Part shown: positions 7,784-14,701 of the stretch, one piece after another
Numbering within the stretch: position 1 is the first letter of the stretch
Layout of the letters: every line of letters starts with the position of its first letter
Virus record (IMG/VR): IMGVR_UViG_3300045004_000088
Span: 192,001 to 253,983 of that record
Strand: one strand, 5' to 3'
Source of the DNA: a virus
DNA length: 61,983 nt
Notes under the pieces: model-generated
Seen by the model: only the letters and a program-made list of their open reading frames with translations
The model's database searches: none
Told to the model about the DNA's origin: nothing
Position numbers and translations under genes: made by a program

Positions 7784-8399
7784 ATGCTCAGGGGAACACG
7801 CATCATGACCGGCGGCGAGGCCGCACGGTTCGTCGCAACCACCGACACCATTCGGGGGTATCTTCATAGCTAAGGGCTACGAAGAGATCATCGTCCCGTC
7901 AATCTGGGAACAAGAAACCTTCGTCGGAAAAGCTGGCCCGGAGATCCTCGGCCAGATGTGGACATTTCAAGACAAGGGCGAACGCAACGTGTGCCTGATT
8001 CCCGAAGTCACCGGGATCATTCAGGAACTCTACAACACCGAGTGGAAAGCCCGCCCGAAGCCCATCCGCCTCTTCTACGTCAGCCGCTGCTACAGGTACG
8101 ACCGGCCGCAAAAAGGCCGCTACCGCGAGTTCACGCAGATCGGCGTGGAGTGCCTCGGCGGAAAAGATGATCGTCAGGAGGTGATAGACCTCTTGACAGG
8201 GTGTCTCGCCCAGTTCAAACTGAACTATCGACTGGTGCCTGCGGTGAAGCGGGGACTGGCCTACTACCTAGAAGACGGTTTCGAGGTGGAGTGCGACCAA
8301 CTGGGCGCACAGAAACAGGTGGCCGGCGGCGGCAGGTACAAAGAAGGGATCGGTTGGGCCATCGGCCTCGACCGACTCATACTCGCGATGGAGGGCTAG
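7784..8399 (+). CDS. truncated histidyl-tRNA synthetase-like class II core (about 205 aa), interrupted by a +1 frameshift in a G5 run near 7855-7861
   Basis: N-terminus RGTRIMTGGEAARF...TIRG in one frame, continuing as IFIAKGYEEIIVP...MWTFQDKGER...RYDRPQKGRYREFTQ (HisRS motif 2) ...GGGRYKEGIGWAIGLDRL (motif 3) in the +1 frame. No insertion or anticodon-binding domains. The downstream ORF is 7956..8399. Confidence 0.55.
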
Positions 8400-8529
8400 G
8401 ACGGTCCTAGCTCTAAAAAATCTGCAATGTCTTTGTTACGACATTGGCATTAAGCAGGAGGGGCAGTGATGAAAATTCACATGCAAGCTCCGCATTAGGT
8501 TGCCATTCGGCAGCCGAAACGGAGGCTTT

Positions 8530-8745
8530 ATGTGTCTGCGCAACATGCGGACCACCCAAGAACGGCGGGCCAACCAGTGCGGCCCGTGGATCAACAAGGA
8601 TCACGGCGTAGTGGTCCCCATCAAGATCCGCCCCGGTCGGGTGAAACTCATCAACGCATGGGACGACATCGTTCGTGGTGACTACGGTCACCGTAGCTGG
8701 AAGCGGCACCGCCGGACCCAGTACCATCGTGTGAAAGAAATGTAG
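8530..8745 (+). CDS. hypothetical basic protein (71 aa)
   Basis: Internal ATG with GGAGG RBS. Confidence 0.35.
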   Translation: MCLRNMRTTQERRANQCGPWINKDHGVVVPIKIRPGRVKLINAWDDIVRGDYGHRSWKRHRRTQYHRVKEM

Positions 8746-8749
8746 AAAA

Positions 8750-8772
8750 GGGGGCTTCGGCCCCCTTTATTT
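8750..8772 (+). terminator. rho-independent terminator GGGGGC-TTCG-GCCCCC followed by TTTATTT
   Basis: Perfect 6-bp GC stem, UUCG loop, T-tract. Confidence 0.7.
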
Positions 8773-8808
8773 CGTGTAGAATGGATTCGTCTTTACGAGA
8801 GGTGCGTC

Positions 8809-9213
8809 ATGAAAGCAGTGGAATGGGCCGACAAGTTCAAGGCGGCGACGACCGAAGACGAGGTCAAGCTCGTTCTGGACGAGTACGGTCGCGAAACTGC
8901 CGAACTCGCCGCCGCGAGGTCCAAGACATCGTCGGATGTCGGGCGGTTCGGTACGATGGACGGAGCCATCAACGAGCAGCGGAACAAGTTCAAAGCCGTG
9001 ATCGGCCGCGTCCCGACACTGAACCTTGCCCAGTTCGAGGCGTTGCTGGACGTTCACGTCAAGGAATACTTCACGGCTAAGGCTGTGTACGAGAAGGCCA
9101 AAGCCGCGAAGGAGAAGGCGGCTCAAGACCCGAAGGGTCACAACAACCACGACGGCCGCAAGTTCAATCGCGGCGGGCGTGGCCCGCAAACGAATCAGCC
9201 CAAAAAGAACTGA
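8809..9213 (+). CDS. hypothetical protein (134 aa)
   Basis: RBS GAGAGG before the ATG. Confidence 0.5.
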   Translation: MKAVEWADKFKAATTEDEVKLVLDEYGRETAELAAARSKTSSDVGRFGTMDGAINEQRNKFKAVIGRVPTLNLAQFEALLDVHVKEYFTAKAVYEKAKAAKEKAAQDPKGHNNHDGRKFNRGGRGPQTNQPKKN

Positions 9214-9596
9214 CTTGACGGGTAGAGACTACGAAAAGACTCCGCAACGATCACATTATGATCTCTGCGGAGTCTTGGCACTTCATTGATCTTGTACCAC
9301 CTGAGACTGCCGATGTCGTCGTTCGGCCAGAACCGAACGTCGGGTTCCACTTCGACGTAAAAGCGGTGGACGATCCGCTTGCTGTCTTGTGACCGGCCGA
9401 GTTTGGTGAGGGATTTGGCGCGAATGCCAGTCTCCTCTTTGAGTTCTCGGACGGCGGCTTCGTGCGGCGTTTCGCCTTTGTCCAATTTGCCGCCCGGCAA
9501 CACCAACTTGGTTTTGTCGTCACGGCGGGTGCCGATCAGAACCTCGACGGCTCCGTTGTGGCGACGGAAAACTGCTACGACTGAGGATTCAAGCAT
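9195..9596 (-). CDS. NUDIX hydrolase
   Basis: Nudix box GGKLDKGETPHEAAVRELKEETG. Confidence 0.7.
   Translation of the reverse strand: MLESSVVAVFRRHNGAVEVLIGTRRDDKTKLVLPGGKLDKGETPHEAAVRELKEETGIRAKSLTKLGRSQDSKRIVHRFYVEVEPDVRFWPNDDIGSLRWYKINEVPRLRRDHNVIVAESFRSLYPSSQFFLG
9238..9274. other. hairpin GACTCCGCA-N19-TGCGGAGTC with nested GATCA...TGATC palindrome, between convergent genes
   Basis: 9-bp inverted repeat; possible bidirectional terminator or processing site. Confidence 0.35.
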
Positions 9597-9660
9597 GGCG
9601 GTATATAATGAGTTCGAGTTAAACTAAAAGGAGACTTCAAATGAGAAACTGATTCAAGAC

Positions 9661-10158
9661 TTGCGTTCGCGATTCGACAAGTGTTTCGAGTTCTACCGCT
9701 CGCAAGTCAACTGCGTCCACGGGTCCACGACCAACGCCGGGTTCATCGACACGATCCGCGTCCCCTACAACGGCGAAAACGTTCCGATCCGAGACATGGG
9801 TTGGACCTCGCCAAAAGACAGTGTAGTCGTCGTCAGGCTCCACGATCCAGCCGCGATCCCCGCCGCGTTACAATCGATCAAGACGGCCGGTTTGACCGCC
9901 TACTCGACCAAGACCGATGTGGTCGTCACGATACCCAGACCGTCGCTCGATACAATCGAGAAGAACAAAAAGCGGTGTCGCGAACTGGCCGAAGACGGCA
10001 AGGTCGCCATGCGTAAGGTGCGACAAGAGTTCAGGGATCTTTCCAAGAAGCTGCCGGACGACGAACGCAAAGCCGTCGAAAAGCAAATTCAACAATCTCT
10101 GGACGAGGGAATAGCCAGGATCGACACCGACTGTGAAGCCAAGATCAAAACGTTCTGA
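9661..10158 (+). CDS. frr: ribosome recycling factor (RRF) homologue
   Basis: Aligns along its length with bacterial RRF: RFDKCFEFYRSQ..., VTIPRPSLDTIEKNKKRCRELAEDGKVAMRKVRQEFRD, ...DDERKAVEKQIQQ. The listed start is TTG. An ATG at 9641 with an ideal AAGGAGA spacing is one frame off. Confidence 0.7.
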   Translation: MRSRFDKCFEFYRSQVNCVHGSTTNAGFIDTIRVPYNGENVPIRDMGWTSPKDSVVVVRLHDPAAIPAALQSIKTAGLTAYSTKTDVVVTIPRPSLDTIEKNKKRCRELAEDGKVAMRKVRQEFRDLSKKLPDDERKAVEKQIQQSLDEGIARIDTDCEAKIKTF

Positions 10159-10163
10159 GGTGC

Positions 10164-10385
10164 GTGATGTCTATACCGGGCAACTCTTTCATCGGCGTGG
10201 TCCTGCTGTGGCTTGTCCACGGCGGGAGCCTCGTTCACAGCTATCGCGTTGGCACCGACATCCCTCACTGGGTTTTGGTTTCGGGCGACGGAACGGTAAG
10301 ACACTTCGCGCCGACACAGGACTTGTTCGACCCTCCACTCAGTCACGTCTTATACCTCGGCCGCTTCGAGGCGGTCGAAAACTAA
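10164..10385 (+). CDS. hypothetical protein with hydrophobic N-terminus (73 aa)
   Basis: ORF followed by a terminator. Confidence 0.4.
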   Translation: MMSIPGNSFIGVVLLWLVHGGSLVHSYRVGTDIPHWVLVSGDGTVRHFAPTQDLFDPPLSHVLYLGRFEAVEN

Positions 10386-12410: not shown

Positions 12411-12593
12411 ATGCTCGTACTGAGTCGCAAGAAGGGTGAAAAGATCATCATCAACGAGAACATCGTGATTGAGGTGATCGAAATCAAGAACAAACAGATC
12501 CGTCTCGGATTTGAAGCCAACAAAGACATCCCCATCCGCCGGGCCGAAGTTCCCGCCCGCGAAGTCCCGCAGCAGCCGGCAGCTACCAAATGA
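12411..12593 (+). CDS. csrA: carbon storage regulator CsrA homologue (60 aa)
   Basis: MLVLSRKKGEKIIINENIVIEVIEIKNKQIRLGFEANKDIPIRRAEV matches the CsrA fold signature. Strong RBS GGAGGA. Confidence 0.85.
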   Translation: MLVLSRKKGEKIIINENIVIEVIEIKNKQIRLGFEANKDIPIRRAEVPAREVPQQPAATK

Positions 12594-12708: not shown

Positions 12709-13140
12709 ATGAAAGGCTTGAAGATGAAGGAAATCGTTCCAGGGTTGTTTCAGGGCAACCACCCGCGTGTCCTGCCCCCGAACGGCATCGACGCCATTCT
12801 CAACGTCGATTTCACTGACGCCAAGTACGAAACCAAGAAACTCCTCGGTTACACCCACAAGCCCATCCTCGACGGCCGCGATCCGGGCGAGGGCTGGCTC
12901 CGAGATGCCGTTGACACCATTCAACGCTACATCAACAATGGGTGGACGACCTACATCCACTGTCAGGCGGGGATTTCTCGCAGCGTGTTCGTCACGGCCG
13001 CGTACCTCGTCCGCGAACACGGGATGACACCGAAGGACGCCGTCAGTCTGATCAACTCGAAGACCAAGATCGCCGACCCCGCGCCGGCCTACCTTCTGGC
13101 TCTGGAAAAGCTGTACAAGCAGAACCAACCCACCGAGTAA
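12709..13140 (+). CDS. dual-specificity / tyrosine protein phosphatase
   Basis: CX5R P-loop HCQAGISRS; the upstream part of the listed ORF overlaps csrA. Confidence 0.7.
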   Translation: MKGLKMKEIVPGLFQGNHPRVLPPNGIDAILNVDFTDAKYETKKLLGYTHKPILDGRDPGEGWLRDAVDTIQRYINNGWTTYIHCQAGISRSVFVTAAYLVREHGMTPKDAVSLINSKTKIADPAPAYLLALEKLYKQNQPTE

Positions 13141-13854: not shown

Positions 13855-13885
13855 CCAGCGGGTGAATTCGATCATGAAGGTATCT

Positions 13886-14701
13886 ATGAAGATCGTCCTA
13901 AAGACGCCTGAACAGATCGAGGGCATTCGGCGAAGTTCACAGGCGGCGATCCGAGTCCTGAAACGGGTCAAAAACTACCTGCTGCCGGGAATGAAGACAA
14001 TCGAGATCAACAACATCATCGACGCCTTCATTCGCAAAGAGAAATGCACCCCCGCCACCCTCGGCTACAGAGGGTTCCCCGCTTCGTGTTGCATCAGCGT
14101 CAACAACGGAATCTGCCACGGAGTACCCAACCAAAAGGTACTCGCGCTCGGCGACGTGGTCAAGATTGACGTGACCACGATCCTCGACGGCTACTACGGC
14201 GACACCTGCTACACATGGATCATCGGCCCGCCCTCTCCAGAAGCCTCCAGAATCGTTTTTGCGGCCAAGAAGTGTTTGTGGGCAGGAATCCACGCCGTGA
14301 AGCCCGGATTGCCTCTGGGAGCGATTTCTAGGGCCGTGAGAGGCACCGCTGACAGCTTGGGCTGCTCGGTAGTCCATCAGTTCTGCGGTCACGGTGTCGG
14401 GTTGGAGTTCCACGAAGACCCGATGGTCCCTTACGATTCGACAGAAGGTCCGAAGTGGCCGATAATTAGGCCGGGGATGACCTTCACGATTGAGCCGATG
14501 ATCAACCTCGGCCGGGCCGAAGCGATAATTGACGGCTCAGACGGCTGGTCATCTTACACCGTAGATGGTAAACTGTCGGCCCAATTCGAGCATACCGTTC
14601 TTGTTACAGAAACGGGCGTCGAAGTTCTCACCGATTGGGGCGACGAAACAACGATGCTGCCGAACTGGAAGATACCGGAGGAAGTATGTCCGTCACGCTA
14701 A
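13886..14701 (+). CDS. map: methionine aminopeptidase type I
   Basis: Motifs CHGVPN, D...YYGD and HGVGLEFHEDP (metal ligands). Internal ATG with AAGG RBS gives the canonical N-terminus MKIVLKTPEQIEGIRRS. Confidence 0.9.
   Translation: MKIVLKTPEQIEGIRRSSQAAIRVLKRVKNYLLPGMKTIEINNIIDAFIRKEKCTPATLGYRGFPASCCISVNNGICHGVPNQKVLALGDVVKIDVTTILDGYYGDTCYTWIIGPPSPEASRIVFAAKKCLWAGIHAVKPGLPLGAISRAVRGTADSLGCSVVHQFCGHGVGLEFHEDPMVPYDSTEGPKWPIIRPGMTFTIEPMINLGRAEAIIDGSDGWSSYTVDGKLSAQFEHTVLVTETGVEVLTDWGDETTMLPNWKIPEEVCPSR

Follow-up and report, generated by a model that had tools for sequence, protein, structure and literature searches.

The closest described relatives of the system reported here are the frameshift site of prfB, the gene for release factor 2 (RF2), and +1 shifting at hungry codons. 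In Escherichia coli K-12 (NC_000913.3), prfB reads ...GTT CTT AGG GGG TAT CTT TGA CTA..., where CTT is codon 25 and TGA is codon 26. A survey of more than 12,000 genomes gave the prfB motif as AGGGGG, three nucleotides, CTTT, GA, and C, and prfB genes without the frameshift lack those elements (PMC12421855). All CUU-stop +1 sites in RECODE belong to prfB (PMC10885494). [quoted passage not shown] Here, we describe a histidyl-tRNA synthetase (HisRS)-like gene at positions 7784–8399 (plus strand) of a 61,983-nt stretch of viral DNA, i.e., positions 192,001–253,983 of IMG/VR record IMGVR_UViG_3300045004_000088, hereafter the window. A programmed, cassette-directed +1 shift is very likely required for its expression. 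The gene probably encodes a minimal, class II core-only HisRS that is made by this shift and feedback-controlled by the supply of His-tRNAHis. These features suggest that a prfB-like +1 frameshift autoregulation has been transferred to a sense codon and to a phage synthetase.

The HisRS-like coding sequence of 616 nt, a length not divisible by three, occupies two frames rather than one open reading frame (ORF). Codons 1–27, starting from the ATG at 7784, are in the zero frame, and the remaining 177 codons, with motifs 1–3, are in the +1 frame. The zero-frame ORF (7784–7873, plus strand) has 29 codons (MLRGTRIMTGGEAARFVATTDTIRGYLHS*). Its codons 1–27 form the N-terminal helix of the HisRS core (MLRGTRIMTGGEAARFVATTDTIRGYL) and are followed by CAT (His, codon 28), AGC, and the stop TAA (7871–7873); the unshifted product is a 29-aa peptide. 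A ribosome-binding site read from the sequence, GAGGAG (7772–7777, plus strand), is located 6 nt 5′ of the ATG and overlaps the end of an upstream 88-aa ORF (stop, 7778–7780). In shifted genes as a class (see below), SD pairing upstream of the start codon is strong, with a mean of −8.2 kcal/mol. The +1 frame is open from 7809 onward, reaches its stop TAG at 8397–8399, and contains no ATG, GTG, or TTG ahead of 7956. The body in this frame (177 codons plus TAG, 7866–8399, plus strand) includes everything from ...IAKGYEEIIVPSIWEQ... to the stop and carries, on the same strand, motif 1 (7875–7922), motif 2 with its loop (8073–8150), the HisA motif VKRGLAYY (8244–8267), and HisB with motif 3 (AGGGRYKEGIGWAIGLDRL, 8322–8378). 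A fused product of 204 aa is obtained only by skipping one base. An earlier reading made from the sequence alone had placed a protein of about 205 aa at 7784–8399; the HisRS-like sequence is indeed there, but it is not a single ORF, and the +1 shift had been silently read through. For this gene, the ORF list gives only a 147-aa fragment, and the JGI gene caller reports separate 29-aa and 147-aa genes.

The break is reproducible and conserved. Four independent assemblies, each from a different sample, agree at every base of the interval 7701–8420 (100% identity). The nearest cultured relative, Sinorhizobium phage Phosso (469 kb), shares 69% identity and has the same arrangement, ATG ... CTC CGA GGT TGT CTT CAT CGA AGC TGA, with the body in the +1 frame and no G run. 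In the Phosso locus (L001 3925–4567; PV764938.1, record 4044–4686), the deposited CDS XYS97181.1, a 196-aa ‘histidyl-tRNA synthetase’, begins at an internal +1-frame ATG, and the deposited protein therefore lacks the N-terminal helix; the true start appears to be the ATG at L001 position 3925, with the same +1 shift. Scanning of IMG/VR and of JGI/ENA metagenome contigs yielded 89 further loci, and the homologous loci are found on contigs of 96–578 kb, which is jumbo-phage size. The architecture had been called unusual in a phage; it proves to belong to a large family. The +1 shift is needed in 52 unique genes and in three more with variant (GTQ) N-termini, 55 in all, while the remaining 26–31 genes are single ORFs. 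The shifted homologues, with pairwise identities down to 48% and a locus GC content of 37–73%, always break at codon 27/28.

Conservation at the protein level is seen on both sides of this point. The N-terminal 26 aa are conserved in the zero frame across the 52 homologues (median identity, 50%), and the +1 frame of that same N-terminal DNA contains stops in 46 of them. The segment 7866–7955, which lies upstream of any possible +1 start codon, is conserved as protein in Phosso and other homologues. Of the best 120 matches in the protein database, about half span only 86–88% of the fused query; this partial coverage is a signature of the same gene mis-call. PHROGs holds no family for the protein, and a search for near-identical DNA (7000–9600) against 50,697 phage records gave no match. 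A single origin of the shifted clade is not apparent in a neighbor-joining tree, which interleaves shifted and intact genes with about nine parsimony changes but is poorly resolved. Transcriptional slippage was rejected because most of the cassettes described below have no homopolymer.

At the break, the zero frame of all 55 shifted genes reads hexamer–NNN–[C/G]TT–CA[T/C]. In the window, all on the plus strand, this cassette consists of the internal SD-like hexamer CGGGGG (7853–7858, codons 24–25), the proposed stimulator of the +1 shift; a 3-nt spacer or E-site codon TAT (7859–7861), which is identical in E. coli prfB; the shift codon CTT (Leu, codon 27; 7862–7864), on which P-site peptidyl-tRNA-Leu is proposed to slip from CUU to UUC (7863–7865); and the zero-frame A-site codon CAT (His; 7865–7867), the proposed sensor codon, which is absent from the full-length protein. 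Codon 27 is the slip codon in every one of the 52 unique genes, 37 with CTT and 15 with GTT. The A-site codon is CAT (37) or CAC (15), that is, His in 52 of 52, and it is also His in the three genes with variant N-termini. The hexamers are CGGAGG (25), AGGGGG (11), CGGGGG (5), CGAGGT (3), CGGAGC (3), AGGAGG (2), and three others. The spacer always measures 3 nt, and its first base is T in 47 of 52. Indeed, an SD-like hexamer exactly 3 nt 5′ of the slip codon is present in 54 of 55 shifted genes versus none of the 26 intact homologues. In the same alignment columns, the latter lack both the SD-like hexamer and CAY and carry L, V, A, or C encoded by various codons.

The hexamer region is predicted to pair with the 3′ end of 16S rRNA (anti-SD) at a mean of −9.95 kcal/mol, versus −1.88 kcal/mol for all windows in these genes, and the hexamer is the strongest anti-SD pairing site of the whole gene in 22 of 52. 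Downstream RNA structure as a stimulator found no backing in these genes: the 60 nt that follow the site are no more stably folded than shuffled sequence (mean z, −0.65), and the same holds for the 60 nt before the slip site (mean z, −0.52). Between the His codon and the zero-frame stop lie 0, 1, 2, 4, 5, or 10 codons. Because its position varies in this way, the stop is not a conserved element of the cassette, and a shift triggered by a stop codon in the manner of prfB was rejected as the common mechanism. In 11 of 52 loci, a +1-frame stop is located four codons upstream of TTC. Together with a zero-frame stop directly after CAY, as in locus L007 (TCC TTG AGG GGG TTG GTT CAC TGA), it confines the shift to the 15-nt cassette. 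Taken alone, the pattern GGRGNNNNSTTCAY is not significant in the window (2 matches versus 1.15 expected). The second match, GGAGCCTCGTTCAC at 10225–10238, is in frame within a 73-aa ORF and was taken as a chance occurrence, because no +1 ORF continues from the match.

The resemblance to prfB is close. The window reads ...ATT CGG GGG TAT CTT CAT AGC..., with CTT as codon 27, and has 11 consecutive bases in common with E. coli prfB (GGGGGTATCTT); another locus, L041, has 12 bases in common with it (AGGGGGTATCTT). Both systems combine a purine-rich SD-like hexamer, an exact 3-nt spacing, a +1-slipping CUU Leu codon, and a slow A-site codon early in the ORF. In both families, the non-frameshifted homologues lack the cassette, and decoding of the A-site codon depends on the product of the gene itself. 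The differences are as follows. The A site holds a CAY sense codon in all shifted phage genes but an in-frame UGA in prfB; the slip is CUU to UUC instead of CUU to UUU, with GUU replacing CUU in 29% of the phage cases; and the sensed quantity would be an aminoacyl-tRNA rather than a release factor, in a phage gene that is aminoacyl-tRNA synthetase (aaRS)-like. Thus, the cassette, with CAY and not UGA as its A-site codon, works like that of prfB but stands outside the prfB family. We found no natural gene reported to carry a sense-codon version of the RF2 site, and no description in the openly searchable literature of a frameshift in a phage HisRS gene or in any HisRS gene, or of a truncated HisRS in huge phages. 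A laboratory precedent is said to exist: Curran and Yarus (1989) reportedly swapped the RF2 stop codon for sense codons and used the frameshift rate to gauge aminoacyl-tRNA selection, which is in effect the same construct as the phage cassette. Slippage of a P-site CUU caused by a slow next aminoacyl-tRNA is also known from yeast Ty1 (CUU-AGG-C) and from E. coli under starvation (PMC5009743; PMC2377451). However, Ty1 exploits the constitutive rarity of a tRNA and lacks an SD element, and the E. coli hungry-codon cases are laboratory constructs or errors, whereas the phage codon would be served by the encoded enzyme, giving a feedback loop.

Several features tie the cassette to histidine. The skipped base is C in all 55 genes and never T. 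A G34 anticodon could equally re-pair if T/U were skipped, as happens in prfB, but the A site would then show a Tyr or stop codon. In 52 of 52 genes, A[TC]N is the codon that follows in the +1 frame; only 9 of 26 intact homologues (35%) carry I or T at the corresponding residue. Furthermore, 48 of 50 complete shifted proteins contain no His at all (0.02% overall), compared with 0.41% in the intact relatives and 2.5% in 20 neighboring genes. At the His frequency of the neighbors, the chance of a His-free protein of 204 aa is 0.006. Since the product has no His, the slip-site codon is the only His codon that the ribosome meets on the mRNA, and the full-length enzyme can be produced under a shortage of His-tRNAHis. 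Locus L011 (3001–3616; IMGVR_UViG_3300036766_000988) has an intact N-terminus and a +1 break inside the conserved CLIPE motif, and its protein is otherwise intact after the shift. The break site there, CAG GTG TGT CTT CAT CCC TGA, is an SD-like/3-nt/CTT-CAT cassette at a second position. A search of IMG/VR for further relatives of this second-site cassette returned L011 itself only.

Family tests were run on the fused 204-aa sequence. Pfam identified PF13393 (tRNA-synt_His, E = 2.6e-21), with PF00587 (tRNA-synt_2b) also matched. Among NCBIfam models, hisS (TIGR00442) scored 150.3 bits, which does not reach its equivalog cut-off of 286.75, and hisZ (TIGR00443) scored 86.9 bits. The top PDB sequence match is Thermus thermophilus HisRS (1adj, E = 5e-30), aligned in two blocks: query residues 2–147 with 6–157 and 141–203 with 244–317. 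Because the alignment splits in this manner and ends at residue 317, both accessory domains are missing. The 1adj alignment skips from 157 to 244, so that about 86 insertion-domain residues are absent and a single helix (130–144) is found in the gap. The C-terminal anticodon-binding domain, from about residue 320, is entirely absent, as the protein ends six residues past motif 3 with no match beyond 1adj 317. An AlphaFold2 model built with 48 sequences has a pLDDT of 92.3 and a pTM of 0.88. Its helix 10–29 runs continuously through the frame junction, with a pLDDT of 98 for block 21–30. In Foldseek, the model matches the HisRS structures 1adj, 4rdx, and 1kmm with query-normalized TM values of 0.87–0.91. 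Pfam, AlphaFold2, and Foldseek together reveal class II motifs 1, 2, and 3 in the canonical antiparallel-sheet fold. Collectively, these results bear out the central observations of the sequence-only reading, namely, a HisRS-like core with motifs 1–3 (the peptides it quoted, RYDRPQKGRYREFTQ and GGGRYKEGIGWAIGLDRL, are present), class IIa aaRS membership, and the lack of the insertion and anticodon-binding domains.

The active site is well preserved. The HisRS-specific motifs are KRGLAYY (HisA) and GGGRYK (HisB), for canonical RGLDYY and GGGRYD. Residues for ATP, histidine, and the acceptor end are kept and invariant in the family (R104, R107, Q109, R112, R114, F116, Q118, E122, R156, Y160/Y161, GGG181–183, and R197); across the 48 sequences, R104, Q118, E122, R156, Y160, Y161, G181–183, and R197 are invariant. 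In the T. thermophilus HisRS complex, the acceptor end is contacted by Glu114, Arg115, Arg120, Arg122, Gly260, Tyr264, and Ala278 (PMC4357726). Via the 1adj alignment, their equivalents are D106, R107, R112, R114, G157, Y161, and A175, all of them conserved and most invariant. Likewise invariant in the family is the motif 2 loop with its Gln, a loop type that has been described as reading G-1:C73. Compared with bacterial HisS (class IIa; 1adj, 4rdx, and 1kmm), the phage protein thus has the same catalytic fold, motifs 1–3, HisA and HisB, and a motif 2 loop, ERPQxGRYR, with the Gln tied to G-1:C73 recognition. However, it comprises 204 aa versus about 420 in HisS, has neither the insertion nor the anticodon-binding domain, and has substitutions at the His residues of the motif 2 region (YRYDRPQKGRYREFTQ).

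Two other kinds of reduced HisRS are comparable. HisZ, which the sequence-only reading had offered as an alternative identity, is also a HisRS paralogue without an anticodon-binding domain; it has no adenylation activity and partners HisG (PMC9437257). HisZ proteins measure about 300–390 aa. The phage protein keeps catalytic residues that are not degenerate and scores lower on the hisZ than on the hisS model, so that a HisZ-like identity finds little favor. No HisG-like Pfam family was found among the called genes within about 10 kb on each side. Designed HisRS urzymes and catalytic fragments are likewise class II cores stripped of the insertion and anticodon-binding domains, and urzymes with motifs 1–2 only activate His and acylate tRNAHis (PMC11602164). 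Those are engineered; the phage family is natural, widespread, and under selection and retains motif 3 as well as HisA and HisB. Class II proteins reduced to the core may be more widespread among phages: BFVD contains A0A6J5M2P2, A0A2I7SAH4, A0A292GIB7, A0A141HRQ2, and K7QJG2 (Escherichia phage phAPEC8), which are 185–222 aa long, adopt the bare class II core fold, and share 9–17% identity with the mini-HisRS.

The gene family is also linked to tRNA-His. In 15 of the 41 unique loci holding any tRNA gene, the nearest tRNA is tRNA-His. Within 500 nt of the gene, tRNA-His outnumbers every other tRNA (22 cases), and it is often 0–17 nt downstream. The linked tRNA-His genes have an encoded G-1, and most have C73 and an encoded CCA, with a subgroup carrying A73. 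In Phosso, whose host Sinorhizobium belongs to the Rhizobiales, a G-1:C73 tRNA-His is located 225 nt upstream of the mini-HisRS gene. The RRCH alphaproteobacteria (Rhizobiales, Rhodobacteraceae, Caulobacterales, and Hyphomonadaceae) use a tRNAHis without G-1 and with G1:U72 and A73 (PMC3064791; PMC3937112). Caulobacter HisRS charges E. coli tRNAHis >250-fold less well (PMC3064791), and the motif 2 loop Gln responsible for reading G-1:C73 is gone from RRCH HisRS (PMC3937112). The phage protein retains this Gln as the invariant Q109. Loci L009 (2293–2366, 3591–3666) and L053 (3042–3116, 3121–3194) each contain two kinds of tRNA-His, the second without G-1 and with G1:U72 and A73; in L008 (1994–2069, 3552–3626), the second also has no G-1 and has G1:U72, but carries U73. 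In all three, the copy adjoining the mini-HisRS gene is the G-1/C73 tRNA-His. In RRCH-type hosts, the mini-HisRS may be what charges the canonical tRNAHis of the phage, which would in this way import a pair comparable to the orthogonal HisRS–tRNAHis pairs of RRCH and other bacteria. HisRS charges mini- and microhelices bearing G-1:C73 (PMC9976931); since it does so, and since urzymes acylate tRNAHis, a missing anticodon-binding domain is not disqualifying. It is probable that the mini-HisRS charges tRNAHis. The earlier verdict that the protein is unlikely to be a bona fide HisRS fits poorly with invariant catalytic residues, the tRNA-His linkage, and the pivotal role of a His codon in expression.

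The frame break, its conservation, the cassette, the absence of His, the kept catalytic residues, and the tRNA-His linkage are features of the DNA itself. From them, we infer that the shift takes place at CUU-CAU on the ribosome, that its efficiency tracks the supply of His-tRNAHis, and that the product aminoacylates tRNAHis. In the proposed mechanism, translation would begin at ATG 7784, and codon 27 would put peptidyl-tRNA-Leu on CUU in the P site, with CGGGGG, 3 nt upstream of CUU, paired with 16S rRNA and CAU displayed in the A site. When His-tRNAHis is plentiful, His would be inserted and termination would follow two codons on, yielding a useless 29-aa peptide. When it is scarce, the ribosome would wait, tRNA-Leu would slip from CUU to UUC, and reading would continue in the +1 frame (AUA GCU AAG ...) to give the full enzyme. 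This enzyme would restore His-tRNAHis, probably by charging tRNAHis via the G-1:C73 acceptor end with no need for an anticodon-binding domain, and the restored His-tRNAHis would close an RF2-like negative feedback loop. That the slip cassette senses His-tRNAHis is likely. A wider proposal, which must be called tentative, is that a sense-codon RF2-type loop, the His-free mini-HisRS, and a phage G-1:C73 tRNAHis form a self-regulating charging pair orthogonal to the host.

Two of the rival explanations deny the shift altogether. The break could be a sequencing or assembly error at the GGGGG run, or the mark of a pseudogene; in the window it is located just downstream of a 5-G homopolymer, and deletion of one G would restore a single ORF. 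Yet four assemblies are identical, the same break recurs in 55 homologues, mostly at CGGAGG or CGAGGT with no G run and always at codon 27/28, and protein-level conservation extends over both sides, which leaves this explanation with practically no weight. Very improbable as well is the making of two polypeptides, i.e., the 29-aa peptide and an independently started +1 body with the hexamer as its ribosome-binding site. This would account for the strong SD-like element 4–10 nt upstream of the +1-frame TTC-ATA and for the alternative +1-frame starts at which gene callers and the Phosso annotation begin the body. Nevertheless, separate initiation of the body is considered excluded because 31 of 52 loci have no ATG, GTG, or TTG in the open +1 stretch upstream of the cassette, and the window has none before 7956. 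The codons after the SD-like element are TTC and then ATH, ACN, or (once) ATG, and ACN (15 of 52) cannot start translation. Conservation also covers the part of the protein ahead of M58, motif 1 included. Residues 1–27 show homology to the N-terminus of HisRS, and in the model a single helix spans the junction.

The other two rivals accept the shift. In one, it is programmed but constitutive, and the cassette is a fixed, low-yield expression throttle that reports nothing of His-tRNAHis, with the His codon arising from coding or context. Quick decoding of cognate sense codons makes a low, fixed shift rate the default expectation; kinetic modeling gives an A-site effect of only about 2-fold when the P site is slippery (PMC2377451); and the need of the +1 frame for A[TC]N (Ile/Thr) alone yields CAY once the skipped base is C. 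Against this stand the His codon in the A site in 55 of 55 genes, although U would also re-pair and I/T occupies the position in only 35% of the intact homologues, and a set of histidine links for which a throttle has no need: the nearly His-free product, a HisRS homologue beside tRNA-His genes, and a second, independent CUU CAU cassette. We regard a throttle as unlikely, though it deserves to be taken seriously. Class II cores have also given rise to EpmA/PoxA, AsnA, and amino acid:carrier-protein ligases. The remaining rival accordingly keeps the shift as described and denies tRNA charging, making the protein a HisZ-like sensor or regulator or an adenylate-forming ligase that loads His on another acceptor. 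Both tRNA-binding accessory domains are indeed absent, non-translational class II core paralogues including HisZ are known (PMC9437257), and BFVD has the other core-only phage proteins of about 190–220 aa. Moreover, in the window's own genome of about 476 kb, a search covering 9 kb on the upstream side of the gene and 54 kb on its downstream side found no tRNA-His gene. Conversely, the hisS model outscores hisZ (150 versus 87 bits), and HisZ is without adenylation, whereas here the residues contacting ATP, histidine, and A76/C74 are invariant. In addition, tRNA-His genes abut the gene in many loci, no hisG-like gene occurs among the Pfam-annotated neighbors, HisRS identity depends mainly on G-1:C73 of the acceptor end, and tRNAHis can be charged by catalytic fragments. 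A non-charging protein, too, is thus an improbable outcome.

For a feedback-controlled, tRNA-charging mini-HisRS, several points have to be set on the other side of the scale, the missing tRNA-His gene near the window's own gene among them. A cognate sense codon is normally decoded fast, basal frameshifting may amount to only a few per cent, and the design may simply keep expression low. The insertion domain, an acceptor-stem clamp in the T. thermophilus complex (PMC4357726), is lost, and tRNA binding may be weaker. The GUU variant re-pairs with UUC at only two of three positions, and part of the CAY conservation could come from I/T coding in the +1 frame. The 52 shifted sequences are related and are not independent trials, and the tree that interleaves them with intact genes is weakly resolved. 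Locus L069 (~2420–2510; Ga0335082_10000001, 436 kb) is the sole shifted gene with a hexamer that is not SD-like, CGTTCC, with CTT CAT TGA kept. The second site of L011 comes from a single contig and is therefore at most suggestive.

The mini-HisRS gene of the window is located at the edge of a tRNA array (1–6480) with Ser, Ser, Phe, and four Leu tRNAs. Two of the latter are tRNA-Leu(GAG) genes (4098–4183 and 4884–4967), which decode CUU, the proposed slip codon, and the other Leu tRNAs of the array are Leu-UAA and Leu-UAG. In L011, too, two tRNA-Leu(GAG) genes immediately follow the mini-HisRS gene. At 2598–2721, a 124-nt match to the Rfam tRNA model (39 bits, above the gathering score) without an ARAGORN call could represent a tRNA interrupted by an intron or extended by a long insertion. 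A stand-alone 114-aa tRNA_bind protein (PF01588, Trbp111/CsaA-like) is encoded within the array at 954–1298; it was set aside as a trans-acting tRNA-binding partner, as it is not near the mini-HisRS in any other locus. Three tandem ORFs amid the tRNA-Leu genes (4365–4898, 4926–5522, and 5530–6057) have no Pfam match; the JGI and Logan calls give 175 aa each, and they look like tandem copies. Downstream, the neighbors have a translation and RNA flavor, comprising a NUDIX hydrolase, ribosome recycling factor (PF01765), CsrA, a dual-specificity phosphatase, and an M24 (MetAP-like) peptidase; the coordinates of this set are 9195–9596 (minus strand), 9661–10158, ~12411–12593, ~12709–13140, and ~13874–14701. 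In the uncultured huge phages LR745206 and LR756502 (635–642 kb; L002 3869–4582, L003 2319–2984 and 3866–4579), intact mini-HisRS genes are flanked by ORFs of about 220–237 aa with a KxDG nucleotidyl-transferase motif (RNA-ligase-like), which hints at a tRNA repair context.

At the level of annotation, gene callers and the Phosso GenBank record misrepresent the mini-HisRS gene as truncated or split, and the N-terminus is missing from about half of the family's database entries. Regulatory +1 frameshifting in bacteria has rested almost wholly on prfB; if the present reading is true, the phage genes would form a second independent family with dozens of natural variants. They would show that the prfB cassette can be re-targeted from a stop to a sense codon, with the ribosome reporting the charging level of one tRNA, and would provide a natural, sequence-defined His-tRNAHis sensor transferable to reporters. 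The protein, in turn, would be the first natural aaRS made of a class II core only. A widespread HisRS core of about 200 residues under purifying selection is a natural counterpart of the urzymes used in arguing the origins of synthetases, and the family offers a test of whether recognition of the G-1:C73 acceptor stem alone supports a working synthetase in vivo. Finally, the system suggests how jumbo phages may get the tRNAs they encode to function in hosts whose identity rules diverge. An orthogonal pair, if real, would explain the use of G-1:C73 tRNAHis by phages of RRCH hosts, whose HisRS charges such tRNAs poorly.

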